Below, piece after piece: positions 18,907-64,000 of a stretch of DNA of 64,000 nt. The notes beneath the pieces were generated by a model. That model worked only from the letters and a program-made list of their open reading frames with translations. It was not told the origin of the DNA and ran no database searches. The translations under genes and the position numbers were made by a program. Positions within the stretch are counted from its first letter, which is position 1. Each line of letters begins with the position of its first letter. This DNA is from Dictyostelium discoideum (Eukaryota). The stretch covers positions 4,416,001 through 4,480,000 of the forward strand of contig CM000154.2 in the NCBI GenBank assembly GCA_000004695.1. Direction: 5' to 3'.

Positions 18907-18986
18907 NNNNNNNNNNNNNNNNNNNNNNNNNNNNNNNNNNNNNNNNNNNNNNNNNNNNNNNNNNNNNNNNNNNNNNNNNNNNNNNN
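18907..18986. other. Assembly gap (run of N)
   Basis: 80 n characters. The flanking 18841-18906 is low-quality-looking sequence (gggggagg, ggggtttttt). Confidence 0.95.
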
Positions 18987-19269
18987 NNNNNNNNNNNNNN
19001 NNNNNNTTCTTTTTATTTTTTTTAATTTTTTTAATTTTTTTTTTTTATTTTAATTTTTTTTTTTTTTTTAGAAATCTGGTGATTTCTTGTGATGAAAAAA
19101 AAATCAAAAATAGTTGCAAGATATTTTTTATTTTTTTATTTTTTATTTTTTATTTTTTTTTTTTTTTTTTTTTTTTTCACAAATTTAATTTTAAATTACA
19201 ATCTTATTATATTTGTTTTTTTTGGTTTATTTATTGCTTTATTTATTTCTATATTCTTTTATTTAAACC

Positions 19270-21847
<2,578 letters not shown>

Positions 21848-22039
21848 TAAAAAATATATAATAATTTTATTGCAATCCTATATGCATTCTTATCAAAGAT
21901 TTAAAAATTAAAATTAAAATTAATCAATAAAATACACATACTATTGTTTTTGGTTCAACTGAAATATACATTATCTCATTTTTTTAAATTTTTTTTTTAT
22001 TTTTACTTAGATTAATCTTTTTTTTTTTATTATCTTTAA

Positions 22040-23610: not shown

Positions 23611-23641
<31 letters not shown>

Positions 23642-32016: not shown

Positions 32017-32853
32017 TTTCTCTTTTTATAAATAATATAAATATAAAATAAAAATAAAAATAAAATAAATTTGAAATTTAAATTATTGTTTAATATAAAT
32101 TTTTAAAAAGAAATAAATAAAAAAAAATTAAATTTTGGTTGGTTTATTATAAACTGTTCATTTTTAGTTCATATTAAATTAAAATTAAAACTGATATATT
32201 TAACAGCTTGCTTACTAAAATTTGTAAGAGGGGTGGGGGTGTGGTAAAAGTTTTTCGAAATGAAGATTAAAAAAAAAAAAAGTAATATAAAAAAAAGGGT
32301 TAGATTGTATTGATTAGATATTACCTGTAACAATATTTCTATGAATATCTTGTTATATTAATAACCCAATTTATTTTTAGTATACTTTACAATACAATAA
32401 TTATCGTCTCATTAAATTAAAAATTAATAATTATAAAATATTCAATTTTGATAATTAATTACCATTTTATACTAAATTTTATTTAATTTTTACTACGTAT
32501 GTACATTTTTATTTAATTAAATTAATTCAAAAATTTTAATTCTCCACTTGTCAGATATACACTAAGATTTAGATAATGATACTAAGGATAGAGAGAATAA
32601 TTTTAAATTCAATTCTTCATACTAAATAAGATCAAATTAAAGAAATTATTGATAATTATTATATTAATAATAAAAATCAATCACTTTTTCTAAATATTTC
32701 CCAACTCCAACCAGATTGAATTAGATGTAAAAGATAGGATTTTGAAGATATACATTATCTCATTTTTTAATTTTTTTTTTTTTTATTATTACTTTGATAA
32801 ATATTTTTTTAGTTATTTTTTATTAATTTATTATTATTTAATATTATGTTTTT

Positions 32854-33384
32854 TTAGTTACTGTTACTATTAATATTATTTAAAATGATTGATTCATTAA
32901 TTTCCCAATCTTGATGATTATATGAACCAATTGAAATTAATAATTCTTTTGTGCTATTTGACATTTTGAATAAACTATTGATTTTAAAAGTTGATATCAA
33001 TAAATTTTGATTATCATGAATGTGGAATGCTGAATATCTTTTTGATGATTTTCCATTTGATTTTGAAACTAATTTAATCCATTCTTGGTAATCGATTTCT
33101 TTGCAATTAAATTTATTTTCTAAAAACTCATAAATTGATTTCATTTCAATTGAATTACCATTTAAACTGTAAATTGAAATTGGTTTTGATTTATTTTGAT
33201 TCCAACTGTTTTCATTGAATATTAAATCAATTGTGGTTTTAGCTATAGTTGTAATTGGAGTTGTGAAAATTGGTTTATGAATATTTGGATAATAACCAAT
33301 CTCTTTTGAAACTTTTAATAAAAGTGATACGAAATCATTTGAATGACCTATACCTGTTATTGGATTTGAGAATATATCTGAATT

Positions 33385-33475
<91 letters not shown>

Positions 33476-36400
33476 GTAATAATAATATTAATAATAATAA
33501 TAATAAAATGTTTATTTTATTAGAATCTATAAATTTAATATTAAAGGTTAATCATATATTAAATATTACATACCAGGTGGTCTAATAATGATTGATGGTA
33601 TACCTCTTGATTCTGCTGCGTTTGTTAATAATTTCTCTGAAATAACTTTACATTGAATATATCCAATTGGTGTAGTATAAAAATTTGGTAATATATTTGT
33701 TTCTTCAAATGTTTCTCCATCTTTTAATTGATGATTAATAAATACTGCAATTGATGAAAAATGAACTATTAACTTTTGTGAGCTATTATTTGAAACTGAT
33801 AATTTTATAACTTGATTGATGCTGTCAACATTTACAGTTTTACTTTCTTCATAATTTGATTTTAAATTTAAATCTGCTGCTGAATTTATAATAATATCAC
33901 ATTCATTTGAAAGTTTTAAATAATCTTGTTCAGTCAAACCAAATTTATCTTTTGAGACATCACCAATCATTGGAATGATTTTAATTAATTGATCTTCACT
34001 TATTTGTTTATTGTTATTTTCACTGTTTTCAATATTACTATTTAATTTATCATTTGACATATTACCTGTACGATTGATTATTTTTGTTAATCTTTGATTT
34101 GGTGATTCTTTGTTCATATCTATTAATTGATGTTTTTTTAAATTATTAATAATTACATCGATTGGATTTGTTAATTTTGAATTATTTCTAATTAAACAAT
34201 AAATTTTTGAGATATTGTCCATTTTAATTAATTCTGTTAATAAATATGCACCCAAAAATCCTGTTGAACCTGTTAGGAATATTGATTTATTATTATTATT
34301 ATTTAATATATTTTTAATTGAATATGGTCTTGAAATGATTGATTCATTTAATTTAATTTCATTTTTAATAAATTCATCAAGTGATTGTTGTTCTTTTTTA
34401 ACTAAATTGTTATTATTATTGTTATTTTTGTTTTTGTTATTATTGATATGAGCCGATTTAATAATTTCAATTGATTGATTGATTTTATTATTTTGTAATT
34501 GTTGAATTGTGATAAGATTATGACCTATTTGATTATCGATAAAATTCTTTAATTGTACAATCACTAAGCTATCCATACCATATTGTGTGAGTTGAAGGTC
34601 TTCATTGATTTTAGATTCATCAATTGATAATAATTCACAAATCTTATTTAAAATTGTTGAACGAATAATTTCATTATTATCACCACCATTACCACTAGAA
34701 GAAGATTTGATTTGGCTTAATTTTTTAGAAATATTAATTTGATAATCGAATTTTGTTAGGAAATGATTTGTTAAAGTTGATGGTAAAACTTCAAAATTGA
34801 AATCTGATAAGCAATAGTTAGGATATTGATGTTGATTTTGAATGAATAAATCTAATGAACTAATAACGAGTTGAGGTGAGAATAGTTTTAAAATTGAACT
34901 CTTGAACATTGTTTCAATTGCATTATTACGTGATATGAAACCAGTTGATGATATCGCACCTAAATTAATGGCTAAAGATGGTAATCCAATTGAATGTCTA
35001 TACTTTGATAATGAATCGATAACACTACATGCACTAACATAACAACATTGTTGATCTGATCCAAATATTGAAACTATTGATGATGCCATTATAAATTGTT
35101 TGATATTCCATGAACGATTAATTGATTGATTGTGAAGATTGATTGCTCCAATTGTTTTAGCACCATGTGCATTATTTAAACGATTCATATCAACTTGTTG
35201 AACATCACCAATATCATTCATAAATGCAAAATGAATGATTGAATCAATATTTGTAATATTTTCATTTAATTCTAATTGATTTAATACTTGATTAACTTTA
35301 TTTGAATCTTCAATATCGATTTGATTGAAATGGAATTTAATATTATTATCTTTTTTAAATTTGCTTTGATTGATTAATAATTCTAATTCCCATTTTAATT
35401 TTGATTTTGAAAGTATTATAATATTTTCAATTGAATGGTTTGAATATTTAACCAAATATTTTAATATTTCTAAAACAATACCAGTTTGACCAGTGAGTAA
35501 AATATTTTTACCAATATTTAATTTTGAAATATCATATGAATGTTTCATTATGATTTGATTGTTATTACTTTGATAATTATTATAAACTCTATTAAATTCA
35601 TCTTGATTATGATTAACAATGATTTTACCAATATGTTTTCTTTGATTTATATATTCAATTGCATCTTTAAATTGATTATTTGAATATTCAATGATTGGTA
35701 CACTTAACTCTAATTCATTTGAATTGATCATTTTGATAATTTTCTTTAAATAGCTTTTGATTAATTTGCTTGGGAAATCTACGACTTCTACGTTATTGTA
35801 ACCCATATTAAACTTGTAATGATTGTTTGTCATATAATCATTTGGTGTGAGATGGGTGATACTTAAATCAACGATACATCCTGACATATTTAAACATTGG
35901 AAATTTGAATCCATATACTCTGATGATAATGTATTTAATATTATATCTACACCTTGTTGATTTTGTTCAACTACACCTAATTCTATTAATTTATTCTTAA
36001 TCTCGTAAACATAATCTTTATTACGAGATGAATAGATAGCAGTAATTAATGATCCATATTTCTTTGTTAAGTATTCTTCTTTATCTTTTGAACCAACTGT
36101 TAAAAATATATAACCTTGATGTTGTTTACTTTTTAATAAATCTAAAGATGATATACCGACACCACCTGCTGCTGAATGAATTAAAATTGATTCATTTGAT
36201 TTTAAATTACCAATACTATAGATACTATGTAATGATGTAATATAAATAGATGGTATTGATGCTGAAACTGAATGATTATAATTTAATGGTTTATAATAAA
36301 TAAAATTGAAATCTATAATAACATGTGAACTATTTGTTTTTGAACCAATACCACAAACTTGATCACCAACTTTAAATTTCTTTACATTACTACCTAATCT

Positions 36401-39400
36401 TGTAATTATACCACTAAAGTCATTACCAATGTTTGGATTATCAATACCAATACCATTTTCAATTTCATACTCTTTACCATATTTAATATCTAAATCTGTA
36501 CCAATCATGCCAATATACATTAAATAATCTTTATAATTTATACCATTTGCCTTAACTTCTATCTCTACTTCATTTGAATTTAATTCAGCTTTTTTACTAT
36601 ATAATTGATATTCTAAATTTGAATTTAATTGAATATATAAATTATCTTTATTGGTTTCAAATGATTCAGATTGGAATATACTTTTAATATTATTTGATCT
36701 TCTACAATATCTTTCATAGTATACTTTATTATTATTAATTGTAAATTCTTTTTGAATATTATTATTTGGATTGATTAAATAATTGATTAATGATAATTGT
36801 TGATTATTTTCAATTGAAACATTATCATAATTTAAAATATATAAATCTAATTGTGGGAATTCAACGAAATAACGAGCAGCACCAATAATTGATGATGATA
36901 AATAATTATCAGTGCTTGAATTTAATGATAATAATAAATGTTTGAAATTATTTGATAATTCTAATTTTAATATTAATTGATTAATTTGAATGTATTCAAA
37001 TGTGATTTCTTTGAAATTAAAAGTATTCATTGTTGATTCAATTGATTTTAAAAATATTATTAATGTTTTATTACAATCATCTTTATTTTGATTATTTGTG
37101 ATCCATGATTGAAATTCATTATAATTATTAATATTAATGATTTTATGTTTTAATTCTTGATTTGATCTTATTAAATCAAGAATACTACTGCTGCAACTAT
37201 TTCTATTTTTATCATTACTATTATTATTATTGCAAAATAAAATGATATTATTGAAAGAATTTAATTGATCTAATGATATTGATTGTTCTGAAATGATTTC
37301 ATTAATTGTTGGTTTTCTAGTTTGAATTAAAAATAGTAAATTATCATTACCAGACATTATTGTATCTCTATAATTACATTGATTTAAAAGGTTGATCCAT
37401 TTCTCTTGTTTCATACAACATCTATCAGGTCTTAATTCGATATCACTATCAGAGGATGGCCACCATTGTGAAAAACAACCGAAAATTGAATCATAATAAA
37501 ATGATTTGTATGGTGGTTCTATATATAAAAGTTGACCATTTGGTGTTAATATATTATGAATTTCATTTAATGTTGGTTTGAGTTTCTTAACGACATGCAT
37601 AACATTTGACATTACAATGAAATCATAATAGGATGCTTTAAGATCTTGATCTAATAATGGTTTCTCTAAATCTAATACACGATAGATAATATTTAAATTG
37701 TTATGATTTGTAAATGATGAAAACTTTTCTTTAATTTCAGCAAAAAATGATGCAGATACATCACTCCATGTAAATTCTATATTAATGATTGATGTTGTAC
37801 TATTATCGTTTAATAATTTACAAATCTTTTCTAAAATTAATAAACTAAGACTACCAGTACCGCCACCTGCTTCTAATATACGAAATACAATTGGTTCATT
37901 TAAAATTGGTTTTAGAGTTTCGACTATAATTTCACTTAATAAATTATTCAATGGTTGAACTACTCTTGAATTCTTATAAAAGTCATCTAAAAAACCACTT
38001 TCAAATAATGATTGTGGTGTATCTGTAATGGAATCATCATCTTTTAATGGGAATAGCTGTTTTGCCATTATTTTAGTTGTTCTAATATATAACTCTTCAT
38101 GTTTGGATTTAATATTACTGTGATTATTGTCATGGTTAAGAATATTACTATATCTCTTTAAATTTTCAAAAATGAATTTGAAAAGATTTTCATTTGCTAA
38201 ACTATTATAATATAATTGTTTGAATTGATTATATTCTAATGTTGTTAATGATTCTAAATTAATACTTGGAGATCTATTATTAATGTGTTTATAAAATAAT
38301 GACAATAATAATTCATTTGAAATGAATTGATTATCTTCTTCTTTGACACTAAATTCATCCACACTATATAAATGTTTGAATTGTTCAGGTTTGTTAATGA
38401 TAGAATCTTTTAATTGAAGATATGGTGTATAGATATCATTTGATGGTGGCTTACAAATTATTGTGCTATCAGGATTGGAGCCAAGTGAAACTAAAGCGCA
38501 AACTACATTTGAGATATCAACTAATAATGTACCATTTGGAAGTATGACTTTAACTGATACTGAATATGTTTGAGAATTGGTTCTTGGTTTAATATCTGAA
38601 AAAACATATAATTCTTTAATACTATCATCATCACTATTATTATTGTTGTTATTTTTATTTAATAATGGAATATTTGAAGAGTAAAATTTGAAAGCTTCAA
38701 TTTTATCAAGTACGACTGGTTGTGTAACTGCAACTAATGACCCATGTAAACAAGTATCTAAAATTGCTGCATTAAAGAATGTATTCATATTGTTATTGTT
38801 GATCAAATGATTATATTCTTTTTGATTATAAATTTCATTTAATGATACTATTGCTAATGAACAATTATTACCGATATAACATTGTTTTACACCTTGAAAT
38901 AAACCTTTGTATGTTAAATTTGTTTTAATTCTAATAGTTTCATAAAAATCTTGTTTTGACATGCTTGTAAAATTACATTTATCTTTTAATGATTGAATAT
39001 TAATTAATTTGTTACTGGTGATACTGTTATGTTTGGTTAAACTAAAATTACCAAGAGATGATAATATCCATTGATTTGTTTTTTGATCTTTGTAATGACT
39101 TTTAATATTGAATTCATTCTTTGATAATGGTGCAATTATAGTTTGTAAACATTGATTATTACCTTCTGTTAATACTAATGGTGATTTAAATTCTAATGAG
39201 CTAATTGTAATATCTTGATTTGGATAAATTGATAATAAATTATGAACATATCCCATTCCTGGATAATAGAATTTATCACTAACTTGATGACCTTTTAACC
39301 ATTGGAATGGTGATTTCTTGATATCGATAAATGTTTGATATGATAGATATGGTGAATCTGTATTATTACCAAGGTTATTAATGGATGGACCTTCACTTTT

Positions 39401-41226
39401 AATCTTTTCAAGTGATGAGTTTAGTTTAAAGTATTCTTTATCATCCCATTGGTAAAGTGGTAAATTATTTAATTTGGTTGTGTTACTAATGTTGTTGTTG
39501 TCATTGATTAATTGTGATTTGAAATTAATATCAAAATTATTATTGACATATAATAAAGAGATTGTCTTTAAGAATTCATTATAATCATTCTTCTTTTTAT
39601 TTAATGGTGAATAGATTGTAATGTTTTTACCATTATTAAAGTAACTTGATTGAGTTGATTTCATTTGATTTAAGTAATATTGTAATGTTGGATGTGGTGA
39701 AACTTCAATGAATGTAATTTCATTACCCATATCATTTGATTCGATATGTTTGTAAAGATTTGTAATTGTTTGTGTGAAATATACTGGTTGAATAATATTA
39801 TCAAATACATAATTTGCATTGAATGGTGAAGTTTGATGATTGAATAAATTGGTTGTAACTGTTGAAAATACTGCTATCGATGGTTGTTTCGATGAAATAT
39901 TTAATGAACATACTTCATCTTTAATCATTTGTTGACTTGATGTATGAAATGATGATAATGATCCTAACATTGAACAAAAGATATCATTTGATTTGAATTC
40001 ATTGGTAATTTCATTTAATAAGTCTTCATTACCTGCGATAACGATTGATGTTGGTGAATTGTAACATGCAATTTCTAATGATTTATATTTAGTTGTAGAT
40101 TGATATTTATTAATGAATTCATCTGAACTAATATTAACTGATAACATTCTACCTGTACCTGTGGTTCTATTTTGAGCTACTGATCTATGGTAAGTCAAGT
40201 AACATAATGTTTGAAAATCAATCATACCTGAACAATATGGCGATGATACTTCACCAAGAGAATGACCAATGATAATATCTGCTGAAACACCCCAATGTTT
40301 ATATAATTCATAGAGTGATACTTGAATGATAACATTTGCAGGTTGTGCTAAAATTGGTTGATGAATTGATATTAAATCTTTATCATCAATTGATCTTAAT
40401 TTATCTAAAACTGAATAACCATAATATTTGAATAACTCTTTATCGAATCTATTGACAGATTCTCTAAATATTGGTTCATTATCATATAATGATAATGCCA
40501 TTTTATTATATTGTGAACCTTGACCACATAATACCATTACTGTGATTGGTGATTTCTTTTTTTCAACTGTAATATTTGAAATTAAATTATCACTATTATT
40601 TAATTTGATTTGATTGCTTTCATCTTGAAATTCATTCCAATCACTTGCGATTATAACTGATTTTTGAATTAATGATGTTGATTTGAATTTAATTTGATTA
40701 TATACAAATTCTTTGAAACTTGTTGTTGTTGGCGATGAGTTTGAATTTGAATGTTTAATTATTGATGATTTATAATTATTTAATGATGTTGATGAATTGC
40801 TTGAGAGTGGTATTAAATATTTCTTTTTTTCATTTAAATTATTATCAATTTCCATTTTGTGATAACCATTACCATTACCATAACGACTAAGATTATTTTT
40901 AAATTCAGATAATATTAAACAAACATTTGAACCTAAATAAAAATTGATAATTTTAAATTGTTAATATAAGTTATTTGTATAAAAAGTATGTAATGATATA
41001 TTTACCAGTAACACCGAAATTATTAATTAACATGACAGTTGATTTATTTTCATTAAATTTAATTGGTTCAGTGACAACTTTTAATCCCCATTCTTTAAAA
41101 TTAATTAATGGATTTGGTTCTTTGAAATTAATATTTTGAAGAAATAGTTTATTTTTAAACATTAAACAACATTTAATTAATGATGCAACTCCTGAACATG
41201 CTGTTATTATTTATTATTATTTATTT

Positions 41227-41266
<40 letters not shown>

Positions 41267-42868
41267 AATAATATTAAATGTTAGTAATTAATGATTGACT
41301 ATGGTTATTATTGATCTAAGTCTAATTTTTAATTAATTAGCTTACCTTCAGTATGCCCAATATTTGATTTAATTGATCCAATTAAAACTTGTTTATGATT
41401 ATTATTTGTTGTTGCTGGTGCTTTATTGAAAACTCTTGATATACCTTCTAATTCTATTGGATCACCAGTTGGAGTACCAGTACCATGAGTTTCACAATAA
41501 TCAATATCAGATTCATTGATTTGACCATTGGTTGATTTGATTGCTAATTTGATATTTTCATACTGAGATGATTTTGATGGTGAATAAAAGTTTAATTTAT
41601 CAAAATTACCATCGATATTTGAACTTGATCCTTTGATTACACAATAGATATTATTTGAATCTTTGATTGCATCTTTTAATTTCTTTAATACAACGATACC
41701 AACACCTTCTGAACGAACATAACCATCAGCATCCGATGAAAATGTATGACATCTACCTGTTGGACTTAAAAGACCTAATTGTGTAAATGATTTTGAAATG
41801 TGTGGATCTATAAATAAATAAAAATTATTTGATAATTAATATATTTGTTTTAATTTTTTTTTTTTTTTTTTTTTATTTTTTTTTTTTTAATTTTTAAATT
41901 TATCACATACCTAATATAAAATTAACACCACCAACAATTGAAACATTTGATTTATTTGATTTAATTGAATTATATCCACAATTAATTGCATTTGATGAAC
42001 TTGAACAAGCTGTATCAATTGTTAAATTTTCACCTCTATTTTTTATAAAAAAATAATCACGATAATAACAATTAGTATTATAATTAAGTTTTTAGTGTGT
42101 GCCAAAAAAGATAAATCAAAAACATACCTAAAATCAAAGCAATAACCAATTCTATTTGCAACGGAATGAGTTGATGAACCAAAAATATTATTTTGAGTTT
42201 CAAATGATGATTTTTGAAGATTATTATAATCAATAGTACTACTACCAATAAATGTACTTGTATTGGTACCACGTAAACTAATTGGATCAATACCACTATC
42301 TTCTAATGCTTCCCATACACCTGTTTGTTGATTTTATTTTAAAAAACATTATTAATGGGTAAATGAAAAAAAAATGAAAAAAAAAATTTGGTGGTTATTT
42401 TTTATTTTTTTATTTTTTTTTTTTGGTTGGTTTCATTTTTATATTTTTTGGCGCCAAACCTGATGAAAATTTCCAAAACACTTATAATGAATACATACAT
42501 TTTAATAAAAATCTTTGTTGTGGGTCTATTGAACTGACATTATCATTGCTTGGATTAATTGCAAAGAAGATTGGATCAAATTGTTTCCATTCATCAAGTG
42601 GAAGTAAACCAGCAAACTTTGAAGCAATTTCACCATTTAAAAAATAATTATCAGACCATCTTTCAGAAGTTGTAACGATTCCATCCAATCCATTCAATAA
42701 TTCATTAAATAATTGATTTGGTTTGGAAATTGATTCTTTTAAACTACCACTTGGAAATCTTAAACCAATACCAATAACTGCAACATCACCACTACTACCA
42801 GCATCATCATAATCATTTATATCCCTTATTAATTGATTGTAAGTATTATTATCTGTATTTTGTACCAT
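32854..42868 (-). CDS. Type I iterative polyketide synthase, copy B (paralog of A), 7 exons, about 3075 aa
   Basis: Exons are 42499-42868, 42128-42320, 41911-42035, 41346-41807, 41006-41200, 33574-40932 and 32854-33377. Intron positions and domain motifs are identical to copy A. Length differences against copy A are confined to poly-N linkers and one codon in exon 4. Confidence 0.9.
33387..33508. repeat. (AAT)n microsatellite in the last intron of PKS copy B
   Basis: About 120 bp here versus about 30 bp at the same site in copy A (22570-22600) and about 95 bp in copy D (56704-56800). Confidence 0.9.
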
Positions 42869-43100
42869 TTTCTTTTTTCTTAATAAATTAATATAACAAA
42901 TTAAAATAAAATATAATAAAATAAATGTGATATTTAAAAATTAAAATTAATAGAAAAAAAATAAAAATTAAATTTTATTTTAAACTGTTTAACAATTTTT
43001 AGTTCATATCAAATTAAAATTAAAACTGATATTTTTAACAGTTTTGCTTACAAATTCAAAGAAGATCTGGGTGTGCTGATATTTATTTGGGAAAAATGAT

Positions 43101-43137
<37 letters not shown>

Positions 43138-44221
43138 ACAGATTGCACAGGTATAGTTTAGATTTATTTATTTTTAATTTATATAAAATCAAAATCATAA
43201 TATAACCCCCACTCCCAACATTAATAATTAATTTTATTCTTATTTTAACAATTTTTTTTTTTTTTTTTCATAAAGTTTAATATTTTCGTTGGAATTAATG
43301 ATTGGTTTTAAAATTTATAAAAAAACAGTTTATTGCAACCACATTTGTACAATAATAATTTTATCTTTTTTTTAATTGGAAAATGGTTATCAAAATTCTA
43401 ATAATGAATTTAATTTTTTCTGTTGTTTTAAAACGTTTCAAGTGTGTTTATTTTTAGAAATAATAAAAAGTTTATTAATTAATTAAAAAAAAAAAAAATT
43501 TGGTGGTTGATTTTTTTTTTTTTTTAAAAAAAAGATGTTAAATTTTAACCCAATTCCCCCATTTAAAGATCAATTTATTTTAACAAACAAAACGTTTTTT
43601 TCAATAATTTTTTTTAATATTATTTTATATAAAAAATAGTCCCTACTCTTTAAAATAATAAATCATAAAAAATAAAATAAAATAAAATAAAAAAAAAATA
43701 TTTTTTTTTATTTTAGTGATATTACCTTTTTTTATTTGATTTTTATTTAAATTGCCTCGCCGAATTGTTTTCGATTAGTTTTTAAATTTTAAAAAAAATA
43801 TCAAATTCCACTGGAAAATTTATATTATTTTTATCTTTAATTATTTTTTTTGGTAATATAACCATATTTTAATTAAAAAAAAAAAAAAAATAAAAAAAAA
43901 TATTAGAATCAAACCTTTATACTTTTATTTATCAATTAATTTAAAAAAAAGGCACTTTAACAATTGGTGAATAGAATTGTACTATATTAGTTAATAGTTT
44001 TCATGGTGAATCACCAAAATTATTTTTTATATTTAATATCTTAGTTCACATTTTCATAAGATCAAATTTTAGAATTTTATTGTTTGCCATTCATTCTTTG
44101 AAAATGGTTTTTTATTTTAAAGAACAACCAGAAGGGGGTAAATTTTATTTGTGATTTTTATAAAAAAAAAAAAATTAATTCGATTTGATTTATGAACATG
44201 GTCTTCAAATGATTGATTCAT

Positions 44222-47200
44222 TTAATTATTTTTGTTTTTGTTATTACTATTATTTTTATTATTATTATTATTATTATTTTTGTTGTTGTTTTTAGCCGAT
44301 TTAATAATTTCAATTGATTGATTGATTTTATTATTTTGTAATTGTTGAATTGTGATAATATTATGACCTAATTGATTATCGATAAAATTCTTTAATTGTA
44401 CAATCACTAAACTATCCATACCATATTGCGAGAGTTGAAGGTCTTCATTGATTTTAGATTCATCAATCGATAATAATTCACTAATTTTATTTAAAATTGT
44501 TGAATGAATAATTTCATTATTAGCACCACTATTACCACTAGAGAAGGATTTAATTCGATTTGATTTTTTAACAATATTAATTTGATAATCAAATTTTGAA
44601 TGGTATTGATTTGTTAAAGTTGGTGTTAAAACTTCAAAATTGAAATCTGATAAACAGTAATTTGGATATTGATGTTGATTTTGAATGAATAAATCTAATG
44701 AACTAATAACGAGTTGAGGTGAGAATAAATTTACAATTGAACTCTTAAACATTGTTTCAATTGCATTATTACGCGATACAAAACCGGTTGATGATATCGC
44801 ACCTAAATTAATGGCTAAAGATGGTAATCCAATTGAATGTCTATACTTTGATAATGAATCGATAACACTACATGCACTAACATAACAACATTGTTGGTCT
44901 GATCCAAATATTGAGACTACTGATGATGCCATTATAAATTGTTTGATATTCCATGAACGATTAATTGATTGATTGTGAAGATTAATTGCTCCAATCGTTT
45001 TAGCACCATGTGCATTATTTAAACGATTCATATCGACTTGTTGAACATCACCAATGTCTATCATAAATGCAAAATGAATGATTGAATCAATATTTGTAAT
45101 ATTTTCATTTAATTCTAATTGGTTCAATACTTGATTAACTTTATTTGAATCTTCAATATCGATTTGATTGAAATGGAATTTAATATTATTATCTTTTTTA
45201 AATTTGCTTTGATTGATTAATAATTTTAATTCCCATTTTAATTTTGATTTTGAAAGTATTATTATATTTTCAATTGAATGGTTTGAATATTTGATTAAAT
45301 ATTTTAATATTTCTAAAACAATACCAGTTTGACCAGTGAGTAAAATATTTTTACCAATATTTAATTTTGAAATATCATATGAATGTTTCATTATGATTTG
45401 ATTGTTATTACTTTGATAATTATTATAAACTCTATTAAATTCATCTTGATTATGATTAACAATGATTTTACCAATATGTTTTCTTTGATTTATATATTCA
45501 ATTGCATCTTTAAATTGATTATTTGAATATTCAATGATTGGTACACTTAACTCTAATTTATTTGAATTAATCATTTTGATAATTTTCTTTAAATATCTTT
45601 TGATTAATTTACTTGGGAAATCTTCGATATCCACATTACCATAGTTCATATTAAATTTGTAATGATTGTTTGTCATATAATCATTTGGTGTGAGATGAGT
45701 GATACTTAAATCAACGATACGTCCTGATAAATTTAAACATTGGAAATTTGAATCCATATACTCTGATGATAATGTATTTAATATTAAATCTACACCTTGT
45801 TGATGTTGTTCGACTACACCTAATTCTATTAATTTATTCTTAATTTCATAAACATAATCTTTATTACGAGATGAATAGATAGCAGTAATTAATGATCCAT
45901 ATTTATTTATTAAGTATTCTTCTTTATCTTTTGAACCAACTGTTAAAAATATATAACCTTGATGTTGTTTACTTTTTAATAAATCTAAAGATGATATACC
46001 AATACCACCTGCTGCTGAATGAATTAAAATTGATTCATTTGATTTTAAATTACCAATACTATAGATACTATGTAATGTTGTAATATAAATAGATGGTATT
46101 GAGGCTGAAACTGAATGACTACAATTTAATGGTTTATAATAAATAGAATTGAAATCTATAATAACATGTGAACTATTTGTTTTTGAACCGAAACCACAAA
46201 CTTGATCACCAACTTTAAATTTCTTTACATTACTACCTAATCTTGTAATTATACCACTAAAGTCATTACCAATTTTTGGATTATCAATACCAATACCATA
46301 TTCAATTTCTTTACCATATTTAATATCTAAATCTGAACCAATCATACCAATATACATTAAATAGTCTTTATAATTTATACCAGTTGCTTTAACTTCTATC
46401 TCTACTTCATTTGAATTTAATTCATCTTTTTTACTATATAATTGATATTCTATATTTGAATTTAATTGAATATATAAATTATCTTTATTGGTTTCAAATG
46501 ATTCAGATTGGAATTTACTTTTTATATTATTTGATCTTCTACAGTATCTTTCATAGTATACTTTATTATTATTAATTGTAAATTCTTTTTGAATATTATT
46601 ATTTGGATTGATTAAATAATTGATTAATGATAATTGTTGATTATTTTCAATTGAAACATTATCATAATTTAAAATATATAAATCTAATTGTGGGAATTCA
46701 ACGAAATAACGAGCAGCACCAATAATTGATGATGATAAATAATTATCAGTGGTTGAATTTAATGATAATAATAAATGTTTGAAATTATTTGATAATTCTA
46801 ATTTTAATATTAATTGATTAATTTGAATGTATTCAAATGTGATTTCTTTGAAATTTGAAGTATTCATTGTTGATTCAATTGATTTTAAAAATATTATTAA
46901 TGATTTATTACAATTATCTTTATTTTGATTATTTGTAATCCATGATTGAAATTCATTATAATTATTAATATTAATGATTTTATGTTTTAATTCTTGATTT
47001 AATCTTATTAAATCAAGAATACTACTGCTGCAACTATTTCTATTTTTATTATTACTAAATAAAATGATATTATTGAAAGAATTTAATTGATCTAATGATA
47101 TTGATTGTTCTGAAATGATTTCATTAATTGTTGGTTTTCTAGTTTGAATTAAAAATAGTAAATTATCATTACCAGACATTATTGTATCTCTATAATTACA

Positions 47201-50200
47201 TTGACTCAAAAGGTTAACCCATTTCTCTTGTTTCATACAACATCTATCAGGTCTTAATTCGATATCACCATCAGAGGATGGCCACCATTGTGAAAAACAA
47301 CCGAATATCGAATCAAAATAAAATGATTTGTATGGTGGTTCTATATATAAAAGTTGACCATTTGGTGTTAATATATTATGAATTTCATTTAATGTTGGTT
47401 TGAGTTTCTTAACGACATGCATAACATTTGACATTACAACGAAATCATAATAGGATGCTTTAAGATCTTGATCTAATAATGGTTTCTCTAAATCTAATAC
47501 ACGATAGATAATATTTAAATTGTTATGATTTGTAAATGATGAGAACTTTTCTTTAATTTCAGCGAAAAATGATGCAGATACATCACTCCATGTAAATTCT
47601 ATATTAATGATTGATGTTGTACTATTATCATTTAATAATTTACAAATCTTTTCTAAAATTAATAAACTAAGACTACCAGTACCACCACCTGCTTCTAATA
47701 TACGAAATACAATTGGTTCATTTAAAATTGGTTTTAGAGTTTCAACTATAATTTCACTTAATAAATTATTCAATGGTTGAACTACTCTTGAATTCTTATA
47801 AAAGTCATCTAAAAAACCACTTTCAAATAATGATTGTGGTGTATCTGTAATAGAATCATCATCTTTTAATGGGAATAACTGTTTTGCCATTATTTTAGTT
47901 GTTCTAATAAATATCTTTTCAATTTTTGGCTTAATATTACTTTGATTATTGTCATGGTTAAGAATATTACTATATCTCTTTAAATTTTCAAAAATGAATT
48001 TGAAAAGATTTTCATTTACTAAACTATTATAATATAATTGTTTAAATTGATTATATTCTAATGTTGTTAATGATTCTAAATTAATACTTGGACATCTATT
48101 ATTAATGTGTTTATAAAATAATGACAATAATAATTCATTTGAAATAAATTGATTATCTTCTTCGTTGACACTAAATTCATCCACACTATATAAATGTTTG
48201 AATTGTTCAGGTTTATTAACTACTGAATCTTTTGATTGAAGATATGGTGTATAAATATCATTTAATGGTGGTTTACAAATTATAGTACTATCAGGATTGG
48301 AGCCAAGTGAAACTAAAGCGCAAACTACATTTGAGATATCAACTAATAATGTACCATTTGGAAGTATGATTTTGACTGATATTGAATATGTTTGATAATT
48401 GGTTCTAGGTTTAATATCTGAAAAAACATATAATTCTTTAATATCATCATTATTGTTGTTTTCATTTAATGATGGAATATTTGAAAAGTAATATTTGAAA
48501 CCTTCAATTCTATCAAGTACGACTGGTTGTGTAACTGCAACTAATGACCCATGTAAACAAGTATCTAAAATTGCTGTATTTAAGAATTTATTCATATTGC
48601 TATTGTTGATTAAATGATTATATTCTTTTTGATTATAAATTTCATTTAATGATACTATTGATAATGAACAATTATTACCGATATAACATTGTTTTACACC
48701 TTGAAATAAACCTTTGTATGTTAAATTTGTTTTAATTCGAATAGTTTCATAAAAATCTTGTTTTGATATGCTTGTAAAATTACATTTATCTTTTAATGAT
48801 TGAATATTAATTAATTTGTTACTGATGATACTGTTATGTTTGGTTAAATTAAAATTACCAAGAGATGATAATATCCATTGATTTGTTTTTTGATCTTTAT
48901 AATGACTTTTAATATTGAATTCATTCTTTGATAGTGGTGCAATTGTAGTTTGTAAACATTGATTATTACCTTCTGTTAATACCAATGGTGATTTAAATTC
49001 TAATGAGCTAATTGTAATATCTTGATTTGGATAAATTGATAATAAATTGTGAACATATCCCATTCCTGGATAATAGAATTTATCACTAACTTGATGACCT
49101 TTTAACCATTGGAATGGAGATTTCTTGATATCGATAAATGTTTGATATGATGGATATGGTGAATCTGTATTATTGCCAAGACTATGAATGGATGGACCTT
49201 CACTTTTAATCTTTTCATGAAATGAAGCAATTTTAAAGTATTCTTTATCATCCCATTGGTAAAGTGGTAAATTATTTAATTTGGTTGTGTTACTAATGTT
49301 GTTGTTGTCATTGATTAATTGTGATTTGAAATTAATATCAAAATTATTATTGACATATAATAAAGAGATTGTCTTTAAGAATTCATTATAATCATTCTTC
49401 TTTTTATTTAATGGTGAATAGATTGTAATGTTTTTACCATTATTAAAGTAACTTGATTGAGTTGATTTCATTTGATTTAAGTAATATTGTAATGTTGGAT
49501 GTGGTGAAACTTCAATGAATGTAATTTCATTACCCATATCATTTGATTCGATATGTTTATAAAGATTTGTTATTGTTTGTGTGAAACGAACTGGTTGGCG
49601 AATATTTTCAAATGCATAATCTGCATTGAATGGCAAGCTTTGATGATTGAATAAATTGGTTGTAACTGTTGAAAATACTGCTATCGATGGTTGTTTTGAT
49701 GAAATATTTAATGAACATACTTCATCTTTAATCATTTGTTGACTTGATGTATGAAATGATGATAATAATCCTAACATTGTACAAAAGATATTATTTGATT
49801 TGAATTCATTGGTAATTTCATTTAATAAGTCTTCTCTACCTGCGATAACGATTGATGTTGGTGAATTGTAACATGCAATTTCTAATGATTCATATTTAGT
49901 TGTAGATTGATAGTTATTAATGAATTCATCTGAACTAATATTAACTGATAACATTCTACCTGTACCTGTGGTTCTATTTTGAGCTACTGATCTATGGTAA
50001 ATCAAGTAGCATAATGTTTGAAAATCAATCATACCTGAACAATATGGTGATGATACTTCACCAAGAGAATGACCAATGATAATATCTGCTGAAACGCCCC
50101 AATGTTTATATAATTCATAGAGTGATACTTGAATGATAACATTTGCAGGTTGTGCTAAAATTGGTTGATGAATTGATATTAAATCTTTATCATCAATTGA

Positions 50201-52561
50201 TCTTAATTTATCTAAAACTGAATAACCATAATATTTGAATAACTCTTTATCGAATCTATTGACAGATTCTCTAAATATTGGTTCATTATCATATAATGAT
50301 AATGCCATTTTATTATATTGTGAACCTTGGCCACATAATACCATTACCGTGATTGGCGATTTCTTTTTTTCAACTGTAATATTTGAAATTAAATTATCAC
50401 TATTTTCTAATTTGATTTGATTATTTTCATCTTGAAATTCATTCCAATCACTTGCGATTATAACTGATTTTTGAATTAATGATGTTGATTTGAATTTAAT
50501 TTGATTGTGTACCAATTCTTTGAAACTTGTTGTGGTTGTTGGCGATGAGTTTGAATTTGAAAGTTTAATTATTGATGATTTATAATTATTTAATGATGTT
50601 GATGAATTGCTTGAGAGTGGTATTAAATATTTCTTTTTTTCATTAACTTTACTATCAATTTCAATTTTGTGATATTCATTTTCATAACGATTATGATGAT
50701 TTTTTTTTAATTCAGATAATATTAAACAAACATTTGAACCTAAATTAAAATTGATAGTTTTAAATTATTAATATAAGTTATTTGGAATCATTAATGATGT
50801 ATATTTACCAGTTATACCGAAATTATTAACTAACATGACAGTTGATTTATTTTCATTAAATTTAATTGGTTCAGTGACAACTTTTAATCCCCATTCTTTA
50901 AAATTAATTAATGGATTTGGTTCTTTGAAATTAATATTTTGAAGAAATAGTTTATTTTTAAACATTAAACAACATTTAATTAATGATGCAACTCCTGAAC
51001 ATGCTGTTATTATTTATTATTATGAAAAATATTTAATGTTAGTAATGATTTATAGCTCTAAAGTTAATTAATTAACTTACCTTCAAGATGTCCAATATTT
51101 GATTTAATTGATCCAACTAAAACTTGTTTATTATTATTTATTGTTGTTGATGGTATTTTAGCACTATTGAAAACTCTTGAAATACCTTCTAATTCTATTG
51201 GATCACCAGTTGGAGTACCAGTACCATGAGTTTCACAATAATCAATATCAGATTCATTGATTTGACCATTGGTTGATTTGATTGCTAATTTGATATTTTC
51301 ACACTGAGATGATTTTGATGGTGAATAAAAGTTTAATTTATCAAAGTTACCATCGATATTTGAACTTGATCCTTTGATTACACAATAGATATTATTTGAA
51401 TCTTTGATTGCATCTTTTAATTTCTTTAATACAACGATACCAACACCTTCTGAACGAACAAAACCATCAGCATCTGATGAAAATGTATGACATTTACCTG
51501 TTGGACTTAACATATCTAATTGGGTGAACGATTTTGAAATGTGTGGGTCTATAAATAAAATTTTTTTGATAATTAATATATAATTCTAAAATTTTCTTTT
51601 TTTTTTTTTCAAATTTATCACATACCTAATATAATATTAACACCACCAACGATTGAAACATTTGATCTATTTGTTTTAATTGAATTATATCCACAATTAA
51701 TTGCATTTGATGAACTTGAGCAAGCTGTATCAATTGTTAAATTTTCACCTCTATTTTTAAAATAACAATTAGTATTTAAGTTTTATTCTTCCAAAAAAGA
51801 TAAATCAAAACATACCTAAAATCAAAGCAATAACCAATTCTATTTGCAATTGAATGAGTTGATGAACCAAAAATATTATTTTGAGTTTCAGATGGTGATC
51901 TTTGAAGATTATAATAATCAATAGTACTATTACCAATAAATGTACTTGTATTGGTACCACGTAAACTAATTGGATCAATACCACTATCTTCTAATGCTTC
52001 CCATACACCTGCATGTTTGTTAATTTTATTTTAAAAAACATTATTAATGGGTAAATAAATAAATAAATAAAATAAATAAATAAATAAATAAATAAAAGAA
52101 AAAAAAAATTTTGGTGGGTTCATTTTTTTTATTATTTATTTTTGGCCAAACCTGATGAAAATTTCCAAAACACTTAATAAATACATACATTTTAATAATA
52201 ATCTTTGTTGTGGGTCTATTGAACTGACATTATCATAAGTTTGATTAATTGCAAAGAAGATTGGATCAAATTGTTTCCATTCATCAAGTGGAAGTAAACC
52301 AGCAAACTTTGAAACGATTTCACCATTTAAATAATAATTATCAGACCATCTTTCAGAAGTTGAAACGATTCCATCCAATCCATTCAATAATTCATTAAAT
52401 AATTGATTTGGTTTTGAAATTGATTCTTTTAAATTACCACTTGGAAATCTTAAACCAATACCAATCACTGCAACATCACCATCATCATTTCTATCAACAT
52501 CATCATCATCATTTCTATCCCTTATTAATTTATTATTATTATTATCTATATTTTGTGTCAT
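44222..52561 (-). pseudogene. PKS copy C, 3'-truncated: KS-AT-DH-cMT-ER-KR-ACP intact, reductase domain and last exon lost
   Basis: Exons are 52189-52561, 51816-52008, 51626-51750, 51081-51548, 50809-51003 and 44222-50739. The reading frame is open for about 2623 codons. Homology to copies A/B ends at about 44185, inside the sequence encoding NESIISRP of the reductase domain. A deletion of about 70 bp relative to copy B shifts the frame to a TAA at 44222-44224. Sequence below 44185 is unrelated to PKS. It could still be expressed as a reductase-less PKS. Confidence 0.75.
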
Positions 52562-52574
52562 TTTCTCTTTTTAC

Positions 52575-52690
52575 AAATAAATAAAATAAAATAAAATAAA
52601 ATAAAATAAAATAAAATAAAATAAAATAGAATAAAATAGAATAAAATAGAATAAAATAGAATAAAATAGAATAAAATAAAATAAAATAAA
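52575..52690. repeat. (AAAAT)n / (GAATAAAATA)n minisatellite immediately upstream of the PKS copy C start codon
   Basis: Direct read: aaataaaataaaat... then five units of aataaaatag. Confidence 0.85.
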
Positions 52691-53975
52691 TAAATAAATT
52701 TGATATTTAAATAATAGAAATAAAAAAAAAAATTAAATAAAAAATTTGATGACGTTTATAGTTTTTGAAAAAATAAAAATAAAAAAAAGGTTAGATTGTT
52801 TGGATATTACTTTCAACACAAATAATTAATTTTAATTTTTGTTTTTTTTTTATTTGACCCAAAATTATGTTTTTTTTTATTTTTTTTTATTTTTTTTTTT
52901 TAAAATCTGGTGACTCTATATAAAAAACTATTTAATAGATTTAACTTAATGTATAGTTTGCTTTTGTGTTTGTAAATTTAGAAAAAAAAAAAAAAAATGA
53001 AATGTTGCAACTTTTTTATTTTTTTTGTTTCTATTTGATATCTCTTTTTTGTTATATGTTTACTTTACGAATTTATTACAGAAAAAATATAAATACATTC
53101 ATCTAAAATATAAATGCATTAATCTAAAATTTACATTTTTTCTGAAATCTAAAATTTTATACATTCATCTAAAATATGATTTTTTATTTCAGAAAGTGAT
53201 ACCTTTTGGTCACATATTTTACATGGCACAACTATTGGTGAAAGTTTACTCATTTCAGTCATTTTTAAATTTAAAGATAAAATATATATGTATTAGACAA
53301 AAAAAAAAAAATTAAAAAAATTTATATGAGACTCCTTATTATGTTTTATAAATTTTAATACGACAACAATTTCGACAAAAAAAACATTTTTTTTTCAAAA
53401 AAAAAACTTTTTTTTTCTGAAAATATTACACCCAGACACAAAAAATTAATTTTTCACCACTTTAATGCTGAAATTTTTACACCCTTAATTAGATTATAAC
53501 TTTTTTTTTTTTTTTAATTTATTGTTTTTATTTTTATTTTTGTTTTTATTTTTGTTTTTAAAATTAAATAATAAAAAAACAGTTTATTGAAATCAAGATG
53601 TTGAAGTATATTACAAAAGGTACAATGGTCATTTTTTTATTTTGGTTTTTTTTTTAAAATTAAAATAAAATAAAATTAAACAGTTTTCAAAAAATAAATT
53701 AAAAAAACTTTTTTTTAAACTGTTTTCAAGTGCGTTTTTAGAAATAAAAAAAGTTTTTTAATTATTAATAAAGAAAAAAAAAAAAAAAATTTGGTGGTTT
53801 TTTTTTTTTTAATAGAAGGTTAAAATTATTTTAACCCACTTCCCCAAAATTTAAATATATCAATTTGTTTTTAACAAAAACATTATTGGTTTTTTTATTT
53901 CATAATTTAAATAGTTTTTTTTTAAAAAAACTTTAATATAAAAGATTCTCAATTTATATATTTTATAATATTACA

Positions 53976-55730
53976 ATGAATACAATATTTACAATTATTT
54001 TAACAATTACAATATTAGTATTATCATTAATATTAAAAGTAAAATTTTAAAATATTATATATATTATTGACTATTAAAAATTAAACACTTACTTATACTT
54101 TTATTTTTTTAAATAGGATTTATTATTTGAAGGTAGGATTAAAAAAATTAATAAATTAATACCTGGTCCTTCTACAATTCCAGTTTTTGGTAATTTATTA
54201 CAAATTAACGCAAAAGATTTCCCAAAAAGTGTAAATGATTTCTATGAAAGATATGGCAAAGTTTTTAGATTAAGATTGGGTAGTGTTGAAATTGTTGTTC
54301 TAACTGGACCTGAAGTTATTGATGAATGTTTTAATAAAAAACATAGAGAAATTTTCAAAGAAAGATATATTAAATTCTCAAGATTTTTGGGTAAAGATTA
54401 TAATATTTTTTCTTCAAATGGTGATTATCATTATGTTCTAAGAGGAATTCTTACAAGTGAAATTACAACAAGAAAGTTAAATAATGGCAGATTAGAATCA
54501 AATAAATTTATTTTAGAAATGTTTAGTAATCTTTGTAAAGATAATAAAGAAACTCTTGTTAAAAATACACCAAATCAAATTAGGATTCTTGCTGTTAAAT
54601 TAATATTAAATTTCACATTAGGAATTGAAGAGAATGACGAAACCATTCTAATCATTGTAGAAAAGATTAAATGCATTTTTGAAGCTGCTGGATTATTAAT
54701 TTACTCTGATTATTTACCATTTTTATTTCCATTAGATATAAAATCAATGTCAAAGAATGATATTATTTCTAGTTACTTTTTTATAAAAGATTTTATAGGT
54801 ATAAAACTTGATGCTATTAAAATTAAATATGAAAAAGAAAATGAATTGAAAAATGAAACTACTGATGAAACATCTTCAAAACTAAACAATATTCCAATTA
54901 TTGAGAATTATTATAAAAATTATTTAGATGGTTCAATTCATTATGATTCAATCTTGTTTTCAATTTCTGATATTATTTTTGCAGCAGTTGATTCAACATC
55001 CAATGGGTTTAGTCTTTTAATTGGTCAATTAATTAATAAACCTGAAATTCAAGATAAAATATATGAAGAAATCATGAGAAATGATGAAAATAATAATACA
55101 AATAATATATCATTTGCTGATCATACAAAATATCCATATATTATTTCTGTAATGAATGGTAATTATCCATATATATATATATATATTGGTATTAATATGT
55201 GTTGATATATTTTTTCAAAAAATAAATTTTGTATTAATTTGAATAATAGAATCATATAGATATAATTCTTCAGTACCAATAACTGAACCGAATAAAACAA
55301 CAGAAGATGTTGAAGTAAATGGATATAAAATTGCAAAAGGTACAATGATAATTAAAAATCTTCGTGGTACACATTTATCAAAAGAGTTTTGGGGTGAAGA
55401 TGCTTTAGAATTTAAACCAGAAAGATTTAAAAATCAACCTTTAAATCAAAAAGGACTTTTTCATTTTGGTGCAGGTATGTTTTAAACTATTTTGAAATGG
55501 GAATCAAAATTTATCACTAATACAATAATAAATATTATTTTATTTAAACAGGAGCTAGAGCTTGTCCAGGAGGAAGATTTACAGAATCTTTTACTTTTAC
55601 TTTTTTGGTGATAATGTTAAAGAATTTTAAAATAGTCAATCCAACTGATATTCCAATTGATGTTGAAGGAGAAGTTGGTTTGGCAATGCAATGTAAACCT
55701 TTTGATGCCTTATTCATAAAACGTAATTAA
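53976..55730 (+). CDS. Cytochrome P450 monooxygenase, 4 exons, 502 aa
   Basis: Exons are 53976-54038 (MNTIFTIILTITILVLSLILK, signal anchor), 54117-55158, 55250-55474 and 55552-55730. Donors are GTAAAA, GTAATT and GTATGT. It has the I-helix AAVDSTS (AGxDTT-like), the PERF motif (EFKPERF) and the heme-binding loop FHFGAGARACPGGRF. It is divergently oriented to PKS copy C, whose ATG is about 1.4 kb away. Confidence 0.85.
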
Positions 55731-55914
55731 AAAAAAAAAAGAATATATTTTTTATTATTTTAATTATTGTTTTCATTTAAATGTAAATAAAAAAAAAAAA
55801 AAAAATAATATTTAATATATTTGTTTTTTAATTTGGTTTCTTTTATTGTTTTTTTTTATTATTGTTTTTTAATTATTTTTATCATTAATTTTTTTTTTTA
55901 TTGTATTTTTTTTA

Positions 55915-56100
55915 AGAATTATATTTTCAAGATGGTTATTTTATAATAAACCCAGATATTAATTAAGTGGTCACTTAAAATATTAAATAACCAGTTTGAA
56001 TGATTAAGATAGATCAATTACCTATCACTCATATTATATTTGATAACAAAAATAATAAACAATAAGTAATAATTTTATTGCAATCCTATATAGGATTTTG
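55915..56100 (+). other. Degenerate partial copy of the 3' end of the 19370-21847 orphan gene (relic of the duplicated unit)
   Basis: 55921-55990 is similar to 21301-21360 (agatggttattttataataaacc.agatatta.ttaagtg). 56003-56100 is similar to 21806-21895 (atcaattacctatcactc....ataattttattgcaatcctatat). About 440 bp of the source gene between those blocks is absent. 56100-56165 continues homology with the region downstream of the PKS-A stop (21985-22080). Confidence 0.7.
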
Positions 56101-56162
56101 GTTTTATCTCTTTTTTATTATTATTAATCTTACTTTGATTAATCTTTTTATTTTATTTTATT

Positions 56163-64000
<7,838 letters not shown>

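Follow-up and report, generated by a model that had tools for sequence, protein, structure and literature searches.

In the present study, we analyzed a window of 64,000 nucleotides of Dictyostelium discoideum AX4 DNA (GenBank assembly GCA_000004695.1, contig CM000154.2, positions 4,416,001 to 4,480,000 of the forward strand; positions given without a locus name are those of the window), with an emphasis on a short interval between the cytochrome P450 (P450) gene cyp514A4 and the type I polyketide synthase (PKS) gene pks32. The window, the GC content of which is 21%, resolved in a self-comparison into four head-to-tail repeat units on the minus strand, designated A to D, each composed of a PKS gene of ~10 kb and its own upstream region. 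An earlier reading of this DNA that was made from the letters alone (the sequence-only reading) had regarded the interval as a relic of an 825-amino acid (aa) gene, which stands intact and convergent with PKS copy A. We refer to this gene as the parent gene and to the interval as relic D.

By the gene numbering, copies A to C would be pks29 to pks31. Copy D was identified as pks32 because the published quantitative PCR (qPCR) primers for this gene match perfectly in D only (PMC3640940). The window holds two 100-N gaps, one at 18907-19006, and a second, independently deposited assembly was 99.995% identical to it over 43976-64000. Comparisons were made with the genomes designated ACTFIR, ACTFIW, ACTFIY, and ACTFIZ, and with those of D. 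dimigraforme, D. citrinum, and D. firmibasis; sequences outside the window are cited by locus (L001 and so on).

Results

The parent gene is intronless, and no Pfam domain above the cut-off was found in its product. It had been described as an orphan, which does not hold, since orthologs were present in ACTFIR, ACTFIY, and D. dimigraforme (88, 85, and 59% at the aa level, respectively) and paralogs were found at 34-36%, including AX4 DDB_G0285087; the gene belongs to a small Dictyostelium-restricted family.

Relic D consists of two blocks that are collinear with, and in the same orientation as, the 3' end and downstream flank of the parent gene (Table 1), in agreement with the sequence-only reading on both their identity and their position. 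Local alignments were scored at +2/-3 and compared with the rest of the window on both strands, with 288 real segments of the window, and with 1000 first-order Markov simulations. Block 1 had a score of 99, against 32 for the best match elsewhere in the window on either strand, and the strict core of block 2 (56010-56091 = 21802-21883, 81% identity over 86 columns) had a score of 90, against 45 elsewhere. In a composition-corrected nhmmer search of the whole window, E values were 6e-7 (block 1) and 2e-3 (block 2), and the latter block was extended to 55988-56092 = 21775-21884. The local alignment of 55900-56170 with 21250-22080, which had been proposed as a check, was significant: 55915-56100 scored 98 against 21250-22080, far above null maxima of 45 among the 288 window segments and 41 among the 1000 simulations, and a low-complexity coincidence is thereby excluded. 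The relic also matched parent residues 648-663 in tblastn (E = 5e-4), and 55200-56140 and 21200-22000 were reciprocal best non-self matches at +2/-3. Permissive BLAST scoring (+1/-1) returned hundreds of AT-rich alignments, including one of 712 bp between 55744-56400 and 32381-33082, which were dropped as meaningless; this noise was countered by the +2/-3 scoring, the empirical nulls, and nhmmer.

The copy is truncated and disabled. Parent codons 1-642 are missing, a TAT>TAA change at 55960-55962 introduces a nonsense codon into block 1, which reads LRIIFSRWLFYNKPRY*LSG where the parent reads FRIIFSRWLFYNKPRYYLSD, and parent positions 21358-21774 (417 bp, or 444 bp by the strict BLAST blocks) are deleted, close to the internal deletion of about 440 bp that had been noted previously. 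The homology to copy A continues beyond the relic, with that of the PKS 3' flank starting 12 bp later (56104 = 21971) and extending over 56104-56900 = 21971-22702 at 85% identity. The relic, former stop codon, spacer, PKS flank, and PKS consequently follow one another just as they do at copy A, with order and orientation unchanged, and the duplicated segment spanned, as had been proposed, the 3' end of the parent gene together with the PKS. No poly(A) tract was found at the 3' end of the relic, and the intronless parent makes intron retention unusable as a criterion. The contiguity of the relic with the PKS flank points to co-duplication at the DNA level and not to retroposition. Copy A carries an extra 75 bp between block 2 and the PKS flank, a large part of which is explained by an A-specific insertion of ~62 bp at 21884-21945; this segment is missing from the ACTFIR A flank, B, D, and ACTFIY L012, and, thus, represents an insertion in A, not a loss in D.

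Table 1. Positions of the parent gene, its relics, and the surrounding features in the window.
Feature	Position	Strand	Remarks
Parent gene	19370-21847	+	Intronless 825-aa open reading frame, convergent with PKS copy A; from translation
Source segment of relic block 1	21296-21357	+	Parent codons 643-663; frame counted from 19370
Source segment of relic block 2	21775-21883	+	Last 23 codons, stop codon 21845-21847, and 36 bp of the convergent spacer
Convergent spacer	21848-22039		192 bp, from the parent stop to the PKS A stop (22040-22042)
Repeat unit A	21960-32296	-	PKS and upstream region; self-comparison
Relic B	32661-32738	+	~78 bp, downstream of copy B; parent ~21740-21803
Repeat unit B	32743-43132	-	Self-comparison
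Remnant of the cyp514A4-upstream element (53500-53880)	43254-43590	+	nhmmer E = 4e-7; no P450 left between B and C
Repeat unit C	44193-52667	-	Without the 3' 1.6 kb (reductase domain)
cyp514A4	53976-54038, 54117-55158, 55250-55474, 55552-55730	+	Intact P450 gene with 4 exons, divergent from C and convergent with D
cyp514A4 3' flank	55731-55911	+	The T-rich segment 55870-55911 holds the junction with the relic
Relic D, block 1	55912-55973	+	57/62 identical, ungapped, to 21296-21357; in the parent frame, premature TAA
Filler at the deletion site	55974-55987		14 bp, in place of parent 21358-21774
Relic D, block 2	55988-56091	+	C-terminal codons, former stop codon, and parent downstream flank; strict BLAST core 56010-56091
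PKS D 3' flank	56104-56162	-	Common to copies A and B; outward from the stop codon 56163-56165
PKS copy D (pks32)	56163-64000	-	Stop codon 56163-56165; runs past the window end, with repeat unit D spanning 56104 to beyond 64000; 3101 aa annotated in the identical assembly

Regarding the other junctions of the array, only about 100 bp had been thought to be shared downstream of the copy B stop codon; this needs to be revised because a relic (relic B) is present there. It has a 147-bp counterpart in ACTFIR (L001 13993-14139 = 21699-21869, E = 1e-26), located in the spacer that precedes the second PKS copy; this spacer corresponds to the A/B spacer of AX4, as judged from matching sequence on both sides (31665-32601 on the left and 32785-33488 on the right). 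The core of relic B (32702-32736) is identical to the ACTFIR relic at 31 of 35 positions. The B-type relic of ACTFIR keeps 21699-21775, which is gone in D, whereas D keeps 21296-21357, which is gone in the B-type; this complementary retention indicates that neither was derived from the other and that their source was a longer fragment or separate copies of the gene. Block 2 was found at the P450/PKS junctions of ACTFIR (L004 11853-11976) and ACTFIW (L011 11881-11977), both of which lack block 1, and in the second ACTFIY unit (L012). Neither block was detected at the first P450/PKS junction of ACTFIZ or ACTFIY, and tblastn and nhmmer searches of all spacers recovered no fragments of the parent gene other than those reported here, and none in the B/C spacer. 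Since copy C lacks its 3' end, no flank is left there in which a relic may survive.

In ACTFIZ, the place of the AX4 relic in the P450/PKS spacer is occupied by a 244-bp element (L005 12206-12449) that has perfect 15-bp terminal inverted repeats (CACTGTGAGAAATTT), is preceded by a long (AAT)n tract, and resembles a miniature inverted-repeat transposable element.

The spliced product of cyp514A4 exactly matched XP_635592.1 / Q54FP9. P450 genes on the plus strand and PKS genes on the minus strand alternate in D. citrinum (with three P450s), D. firmibasis, ACTFIY, and ACTFIW, and the divergent P450-PKS pair is repeated in several species (L004, L005, L006, L007, L008, L011, and L012). Within AX4, the block comprising a PKS 5' end, a spacer, and cyp514A1 at L009 8860-11849 is paralogous to 52481-55777, and a remnant of the element upstream of cyp514A4 persists between copies B and C. 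Taken together, the alternating arrays, paralogous cyp514A1 unit, and element remnant indicate that the P450 belonged to the repeat unit from the start and has disappeared from the other spacers; the relic alone is insufficient to explain how the P450 came to lie between copies, as had been claimed for it. P450 coding remnants were not detected by tblastn in the A/B, B/C, and ACTFIR spacers. The same upstream element, ~330 bp in length, trails the D ortholog in ACTFIY with no adjacent P450 (L006 19452-19690), and is probably part of a divergent promoter region shared by the PKS and P450. A fragment of a DDE_Tnp_4 (Harbinger/PIF-type) transposase (L006 20822-21190, Pfam E = 2e-13) lies directly after this promoter-region element, which trails the degenerate D ortholog of ACTFIY. 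The homology of the cyp514A4 3' flank ends at 55777 with AX4 cyp514A1, at 55806 with ACTFIR, and at 55870 with ACTFIZ. The relic starts ~40 bp from the last of these ends, a position that fits a junction between the end of a unit and a clipped neighboring gene.

In ACTFIR, ACTFIY, and the outgroup D. dimigraforme, the parent gene is intact and convergent with a PKS gene at the edge of the array, with the same neighbors in all three genomes. These are two C2-domain genes directly upstream of the parent gene and a Hexapep gene before them; in ACTFIR and ACTFIY, an extra gene of ~900 aa is located between the C2 genes and the parent gene. Since the same convergent pair is present in the outgroup, the arrangement on the A side is ancestral, which bears out the view that an A-like unit came first. 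As for the broader claim of a fixed order of events, the relic supports the first step, in which the gene-adjacent unit was the source, but carries no information on which of B, C, and D came before the others.

The age of the relics was assessed from the sites at which the genes of three members of the discoideum complex agree and that of D. dimigraforme differs. Ingroup states outnumbered outgroup states by 5 to 1 in block 1 of AX4 relic D, 5 to 1 in block 2, 16 to 7 in ACTFIR relic 2, and 8 to 5 in AX4 relic B. An example of an outgroup state that was kept in a relic is AAAAGATAAATC, for which the intact genes show AAAGTGTATATC or AAAATAT(A/T)TATC. This mixture of derived and outgroup states suggests an origin on the stem of the discoideum complex, which would fall approximately between the split of D. 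dimigraforme and the divergence of AX4, ACTFIR, and ACTFIY. Structure also speaks for this age, since ACTFIR, ACTFIW, and the second ACTFIY unit have block 2 at the same P450/PKS junction as AX4, and the B/C spacer and the truncated copy C are common to ACTFIR and ACTFIZ. Across the locus (825-aa gene, P450, and spacers), ACTFIR and ACTFIW, both labelled D. discoideum, show nucleotide differences of 5-9% from AX4, a value that is high for one species and could reflect either deep lineages within 'D. discoideum' or unusually fast regional evolution.

The PKS bodies provide less information on this history. AX4 paralogs were 92.7-95.5% identical among themselves; copy D was 95.3, 95.5, and 94.6% identical to B, C, and A, respectively, and 93.1-95.6% identical to its positional ortholog in ACTFIR, while cyp514A4 was 94.6% identical to AX4 cyp514A1 and 91.4% identical to its ACTFIR positional ortholog. 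Distance matrices calculated per kilobase were mixed and star-like (2-6%), and some pairs from the same genome were the closest, clearly so only for the two D. firmibasis copies (0.8-0.9% apart) and for some ACTFIY and some ACTFIZ pairs. The head-to-tail units differ in copy number between genomes, and the distance from the parent gene to the P450 is 32.1 kb in AX4, 40.1 kb in ACTFIR, and 24.0 kb in ACTFIY. These variable distances, together with the similarity of paralogs to orthologs, indicate that the array changes its copy number and exchanges sequence. Because paralogs are as close as positional orthologs, the PKS bodies, which look partially homogenized, cannot order the duplications of B, C, and D.

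Several members of the array are incomplete. PKS copy C, annotated with 2623 aa in the identical assembly, stops straight after the ACP domain, without a C-terminal reductase domain; its truncation point is also present in ACTFIR (L004 4504) and ACTFIZ (L005 664), and, thus, the truncation is old and a reductase-less PKS has long been retained. Copy C of ACTFIR has a further internal deletion of 3.6 kb. All that is left of copy A in ACTFIR (L001 12445-13806) is the last ~390 bp of the PKS, fused to the upstream region and annotated as a 186-aa gene, and in ACTFIY, a PKS upstream fragment (L002 12326-12744) comes immediately after the 825-aa gene. Beyond copy D in AX4 (L009, ~67-89 kb on the scale of the window), a PKS is reduced to its KS-AT 5' part and a 6.4-kb insertion with an RVT_1 retroelement lies at the equivalent of ~52485; these are followed by cyp514A1 (annotated with 575 aa) and by a complete, inverted PKS.

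Regarding the surroundings of the array, the sequence to the left of the 18907-19006 gap, which includes an alpha-kinase/WD40 gene (10907-12943) among others, showed no collinearity with ACTFIR, ACTFIY, or D. dimigraforme, and this reflects either a rearrangement in AX4 or a scaffold join. Long AAT/ATT triplet tracts, which encode poly-Asn/Ile, occur at 56704-56800, 19261-19372, 19821-19948, and 437-622, with locations that include the last PKS exon as well as the 825-aa gene and its upstream region; raw BLAST output is dominated by these tracts, which need to be masked in any self-comparison. The spacer segments 32332-32660 (A/B) and 43590-44193 (B/C) matched only the corresponding ACTFIR spacers and nothing within the window, and the ACTFIR version (L001 13780-13880) resembles a coding sequence (NGSGLGSGSGVTYPTIHNP). 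A 45-bp match between 19038-19082 and 52870-52913 is mostly poly-T.

Discussion

Considering the homology, lesions, and position of relic D, we regard it, with a probability of approximately 0.7, as a non-functional fragment of an unprocessed pseudogene that was left by an old tandem segmental duplication. In the ancestral layout, the parent gene and a PKS gene would have stood tail to tail with less than 200 bp between their stop codons, and the PKS gene head to head with a P450 gene. We infer that a single tandem segmental duplication on the stem of the D. discoideum complex was the founding event, with a left breakpoint inside the parent gene, at or to the left of codon 643, and a right breakpoint just downstream of a P450, which would have created a junction composed of the P450 3' flank, the last ~550 bp of the gene, and the PKS. 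Relic-bearing units may then have been amplified and contracted by unequal crossing-over. The PKS bodies would have been homogenized by gene conversion, while the flanks, being outside the conversion tracts, would have decayed by independent deletions, through which D would have lost 417 bp besides gaining a stop codon, B would have kept ~78 bp, and C would have lost its whole 3' end. P450s would also have been deleted from the A/B and B/C spacers.

Some observations weigh against this scenario. The left edge at 55912 could mark the limit of survival instead of the original breakpoint, and the case for a single origin of relics B and D is weak, as the two have only one or two C residues of block 2 in common. 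Few ancestral and derived sites could be counted, and these come from AT-rich alignments. In D. citrinum and D. firmibasis, the P450/PKS junctions showed no relic, nor did the sequence after AX4 cyp514A1, and, thus, the relic-bearing unit was not the sole type of unit. Directly beyond D lies a truncated PKS instead of a P450, such that the presence of a P450 after every unit holds only if further deletions are invoked.

An ectopic origin of relic D is unlikely, although it would yield a structural outcome identical to that observed. A break in or near the 3' end of PKS D, which would already have been tail to tail with a P450, may have been resolved by ectopic repair or gene conversion with copy A as the template, with synthesis running ~740 bp into the A flank and ending by end-joining in the P450 3' flank, such that the own flank of D was replaced. 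The PKS copies clearly exchange sequence, and the relic-free P450/PKS junctions of D. citrinum and D. firmibasis, with 81-290 bp between stop codons, suggest that this type of junction is old. However, a separate, similar event would be required for relic B and its ACTFIR counterpart, which makes repair less parsimonious than the amplification of one relic-bearing unit, and the event would be ancient in any case because the relics keep outgroup states that are gone from all present-day copies of the gene. An opposite polarity, in which the original place of the gene was beside D, past the P450, and the A side received a full copy, after which that on the D side decayed, has a very remote chance of being correct. 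A truncated copy by itself cannot prove which locus was the source, and in AX4, a gap breaks the region to the left of the parent gene, and this region shows no collinearity with the other genomes; nevertheless, the intact gene stands at the array edge with the same neighbors in ACTFIR, ACTFIY, and D. dimigraforme, P450/PKS junctions in the genomes examined never hold more than the last ~550 bp of the gene, and relic B would require yet another copy. Chance similarity between AT-rich, low-complexity sequences, or an assembly artifact, is of negligible probability and was refuted. At 21% GC, permissive scoring gives hundreds of spurious alignments around 55700-55915, T-rich runs nearly equal block 1 in raw BLAST bit score, and the window has its two 100-N gaps; in spite of this, the blocks are not of low complexity, their scores are 2-3 times those of the best match elsewhere, the nhmmer E value reaches 6e-7, and they are collinear with the PKS flank. 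An artifact is also contradicted by the independent assembly and by orthologous relic sequence in ACTFIR, ACTFIW, and ACTFIY.

A function for the conserved part of the relic appears to be improbable. The segments 56067-56091 and 21859-21883 are identical at 25 of 25 positions within a block of ~81% identity, and this motif occurs only twice in the window. The core, TAATTTTAT(T/G/A)GCA(A/C)TCCT, was also found in the A flank of ACTFIR and at the P450/PKS junctions of ACTFIR, ACTFIW, and ACTFIY L012, and AATAAA appears in its reverse complement (the PKS strand) at 75-95 nt past the pks32 stop codon, as may be expected if the core and its surroundings were a module for 3'-end processing or termination of the PKS gene or of both convergent genes. 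On the other hand, the core is missing from copy B, the first ACTFIZ and ACTFIY junctions, D. dimigraforme, D. citrinum, and D. firmibasis, a GC content of 21% makes strings like AATAAA common, and the coding-derived blocks decay freely; the core may at most be part of the region in which the PKS 3' end is processed. Neither an Rfam nor a tRNA scan of the relic spacer gave a match, and disabling lesions are present. Nothing suggests a function for the relic itself, and its differential loss between lineages suggests that it is non-functional. The relic is located in a 432-bp zone between the convergent cyp514A4 and pks32 and has perfect matches of 23 and 25 nt to the coding sequence and 3' flank of its parent. 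Convergent transcripts could form double-stranded RNA, and small RNAs from the relic could regulate the parent gene in trans, which would couple the expression of the 825-aa gene to the activity of the PKS/P450 pair; the free decay of the relic in individual lineages argues against this, and we consider it highly improbable.

The value of relics of this kind, if they arose by segmental duplication as proposed above, is that they lie in flanks outside the exchanged tracts and, thus, record a history that the partly homogenized PKS coding regions cannot. They indicate that the architecture of the pks29-32/cyp514A array is older than the split of the D. discoideum-complex genomes, that its repeat unit is a PKS-P450 pair bounded by a clipped neighboring gene, and that later changes in the array were mostly losses of P450s, PKS 3' ends, and whole copies. 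They may be of modest practical use for annotating and dating secondary-metabolite clusters in Dictyostelium.

The expansion of PKS genes in Dictyostelium was reportedly a subject of Zucko et al. in 2007. A large, recently expanded, and lineage-specific PKS family has also been described in D. discoideum via gene trees (Sucgang et al., 2011, PMC3188802), and the present array, with copy D as pks32, belongs to that family. The available portion of that paper contains no description of flank relics, a PKS-P450 repeat unit, or an array architecture common to the discoideum-complex genomes (PMC3188802). With its head-to-tail units, variable copy number, and paralogs that are about as similar as positional orthologs, the array resembles tandem arrays under concerted evolution, from which it differs in that homogenization is partial and 2-6% divergence is left. 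Its gene arrangement resembles that of biosynthetic pairs of a PKS and a tailoring P450; the two genes are divergent, and at least five Dictyostelium genomes show them duplicated together, although most AX4 units have lost the P450. Relic D itself corresponds to the unprocessed pseudogene fragments found at segmental-duplication junctions, being a clipped copy of a neighbor that runs collinear with the co-duplicated gene and has been disabled by a nonsense codon and deletions, with losses that differ between lineages. Nothing essential differs from such fragments, and the only particular feature is the tight tail-to-tail packing, with 192 bp between stop codons, as a result of which the duplication of a complete PKS transcription unit would almost inevitably clip the neighbor. 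Involving no new mechanism or element, relic D is an ordinary duplication scar, a familiar phenomenon in a known expanding gene family.

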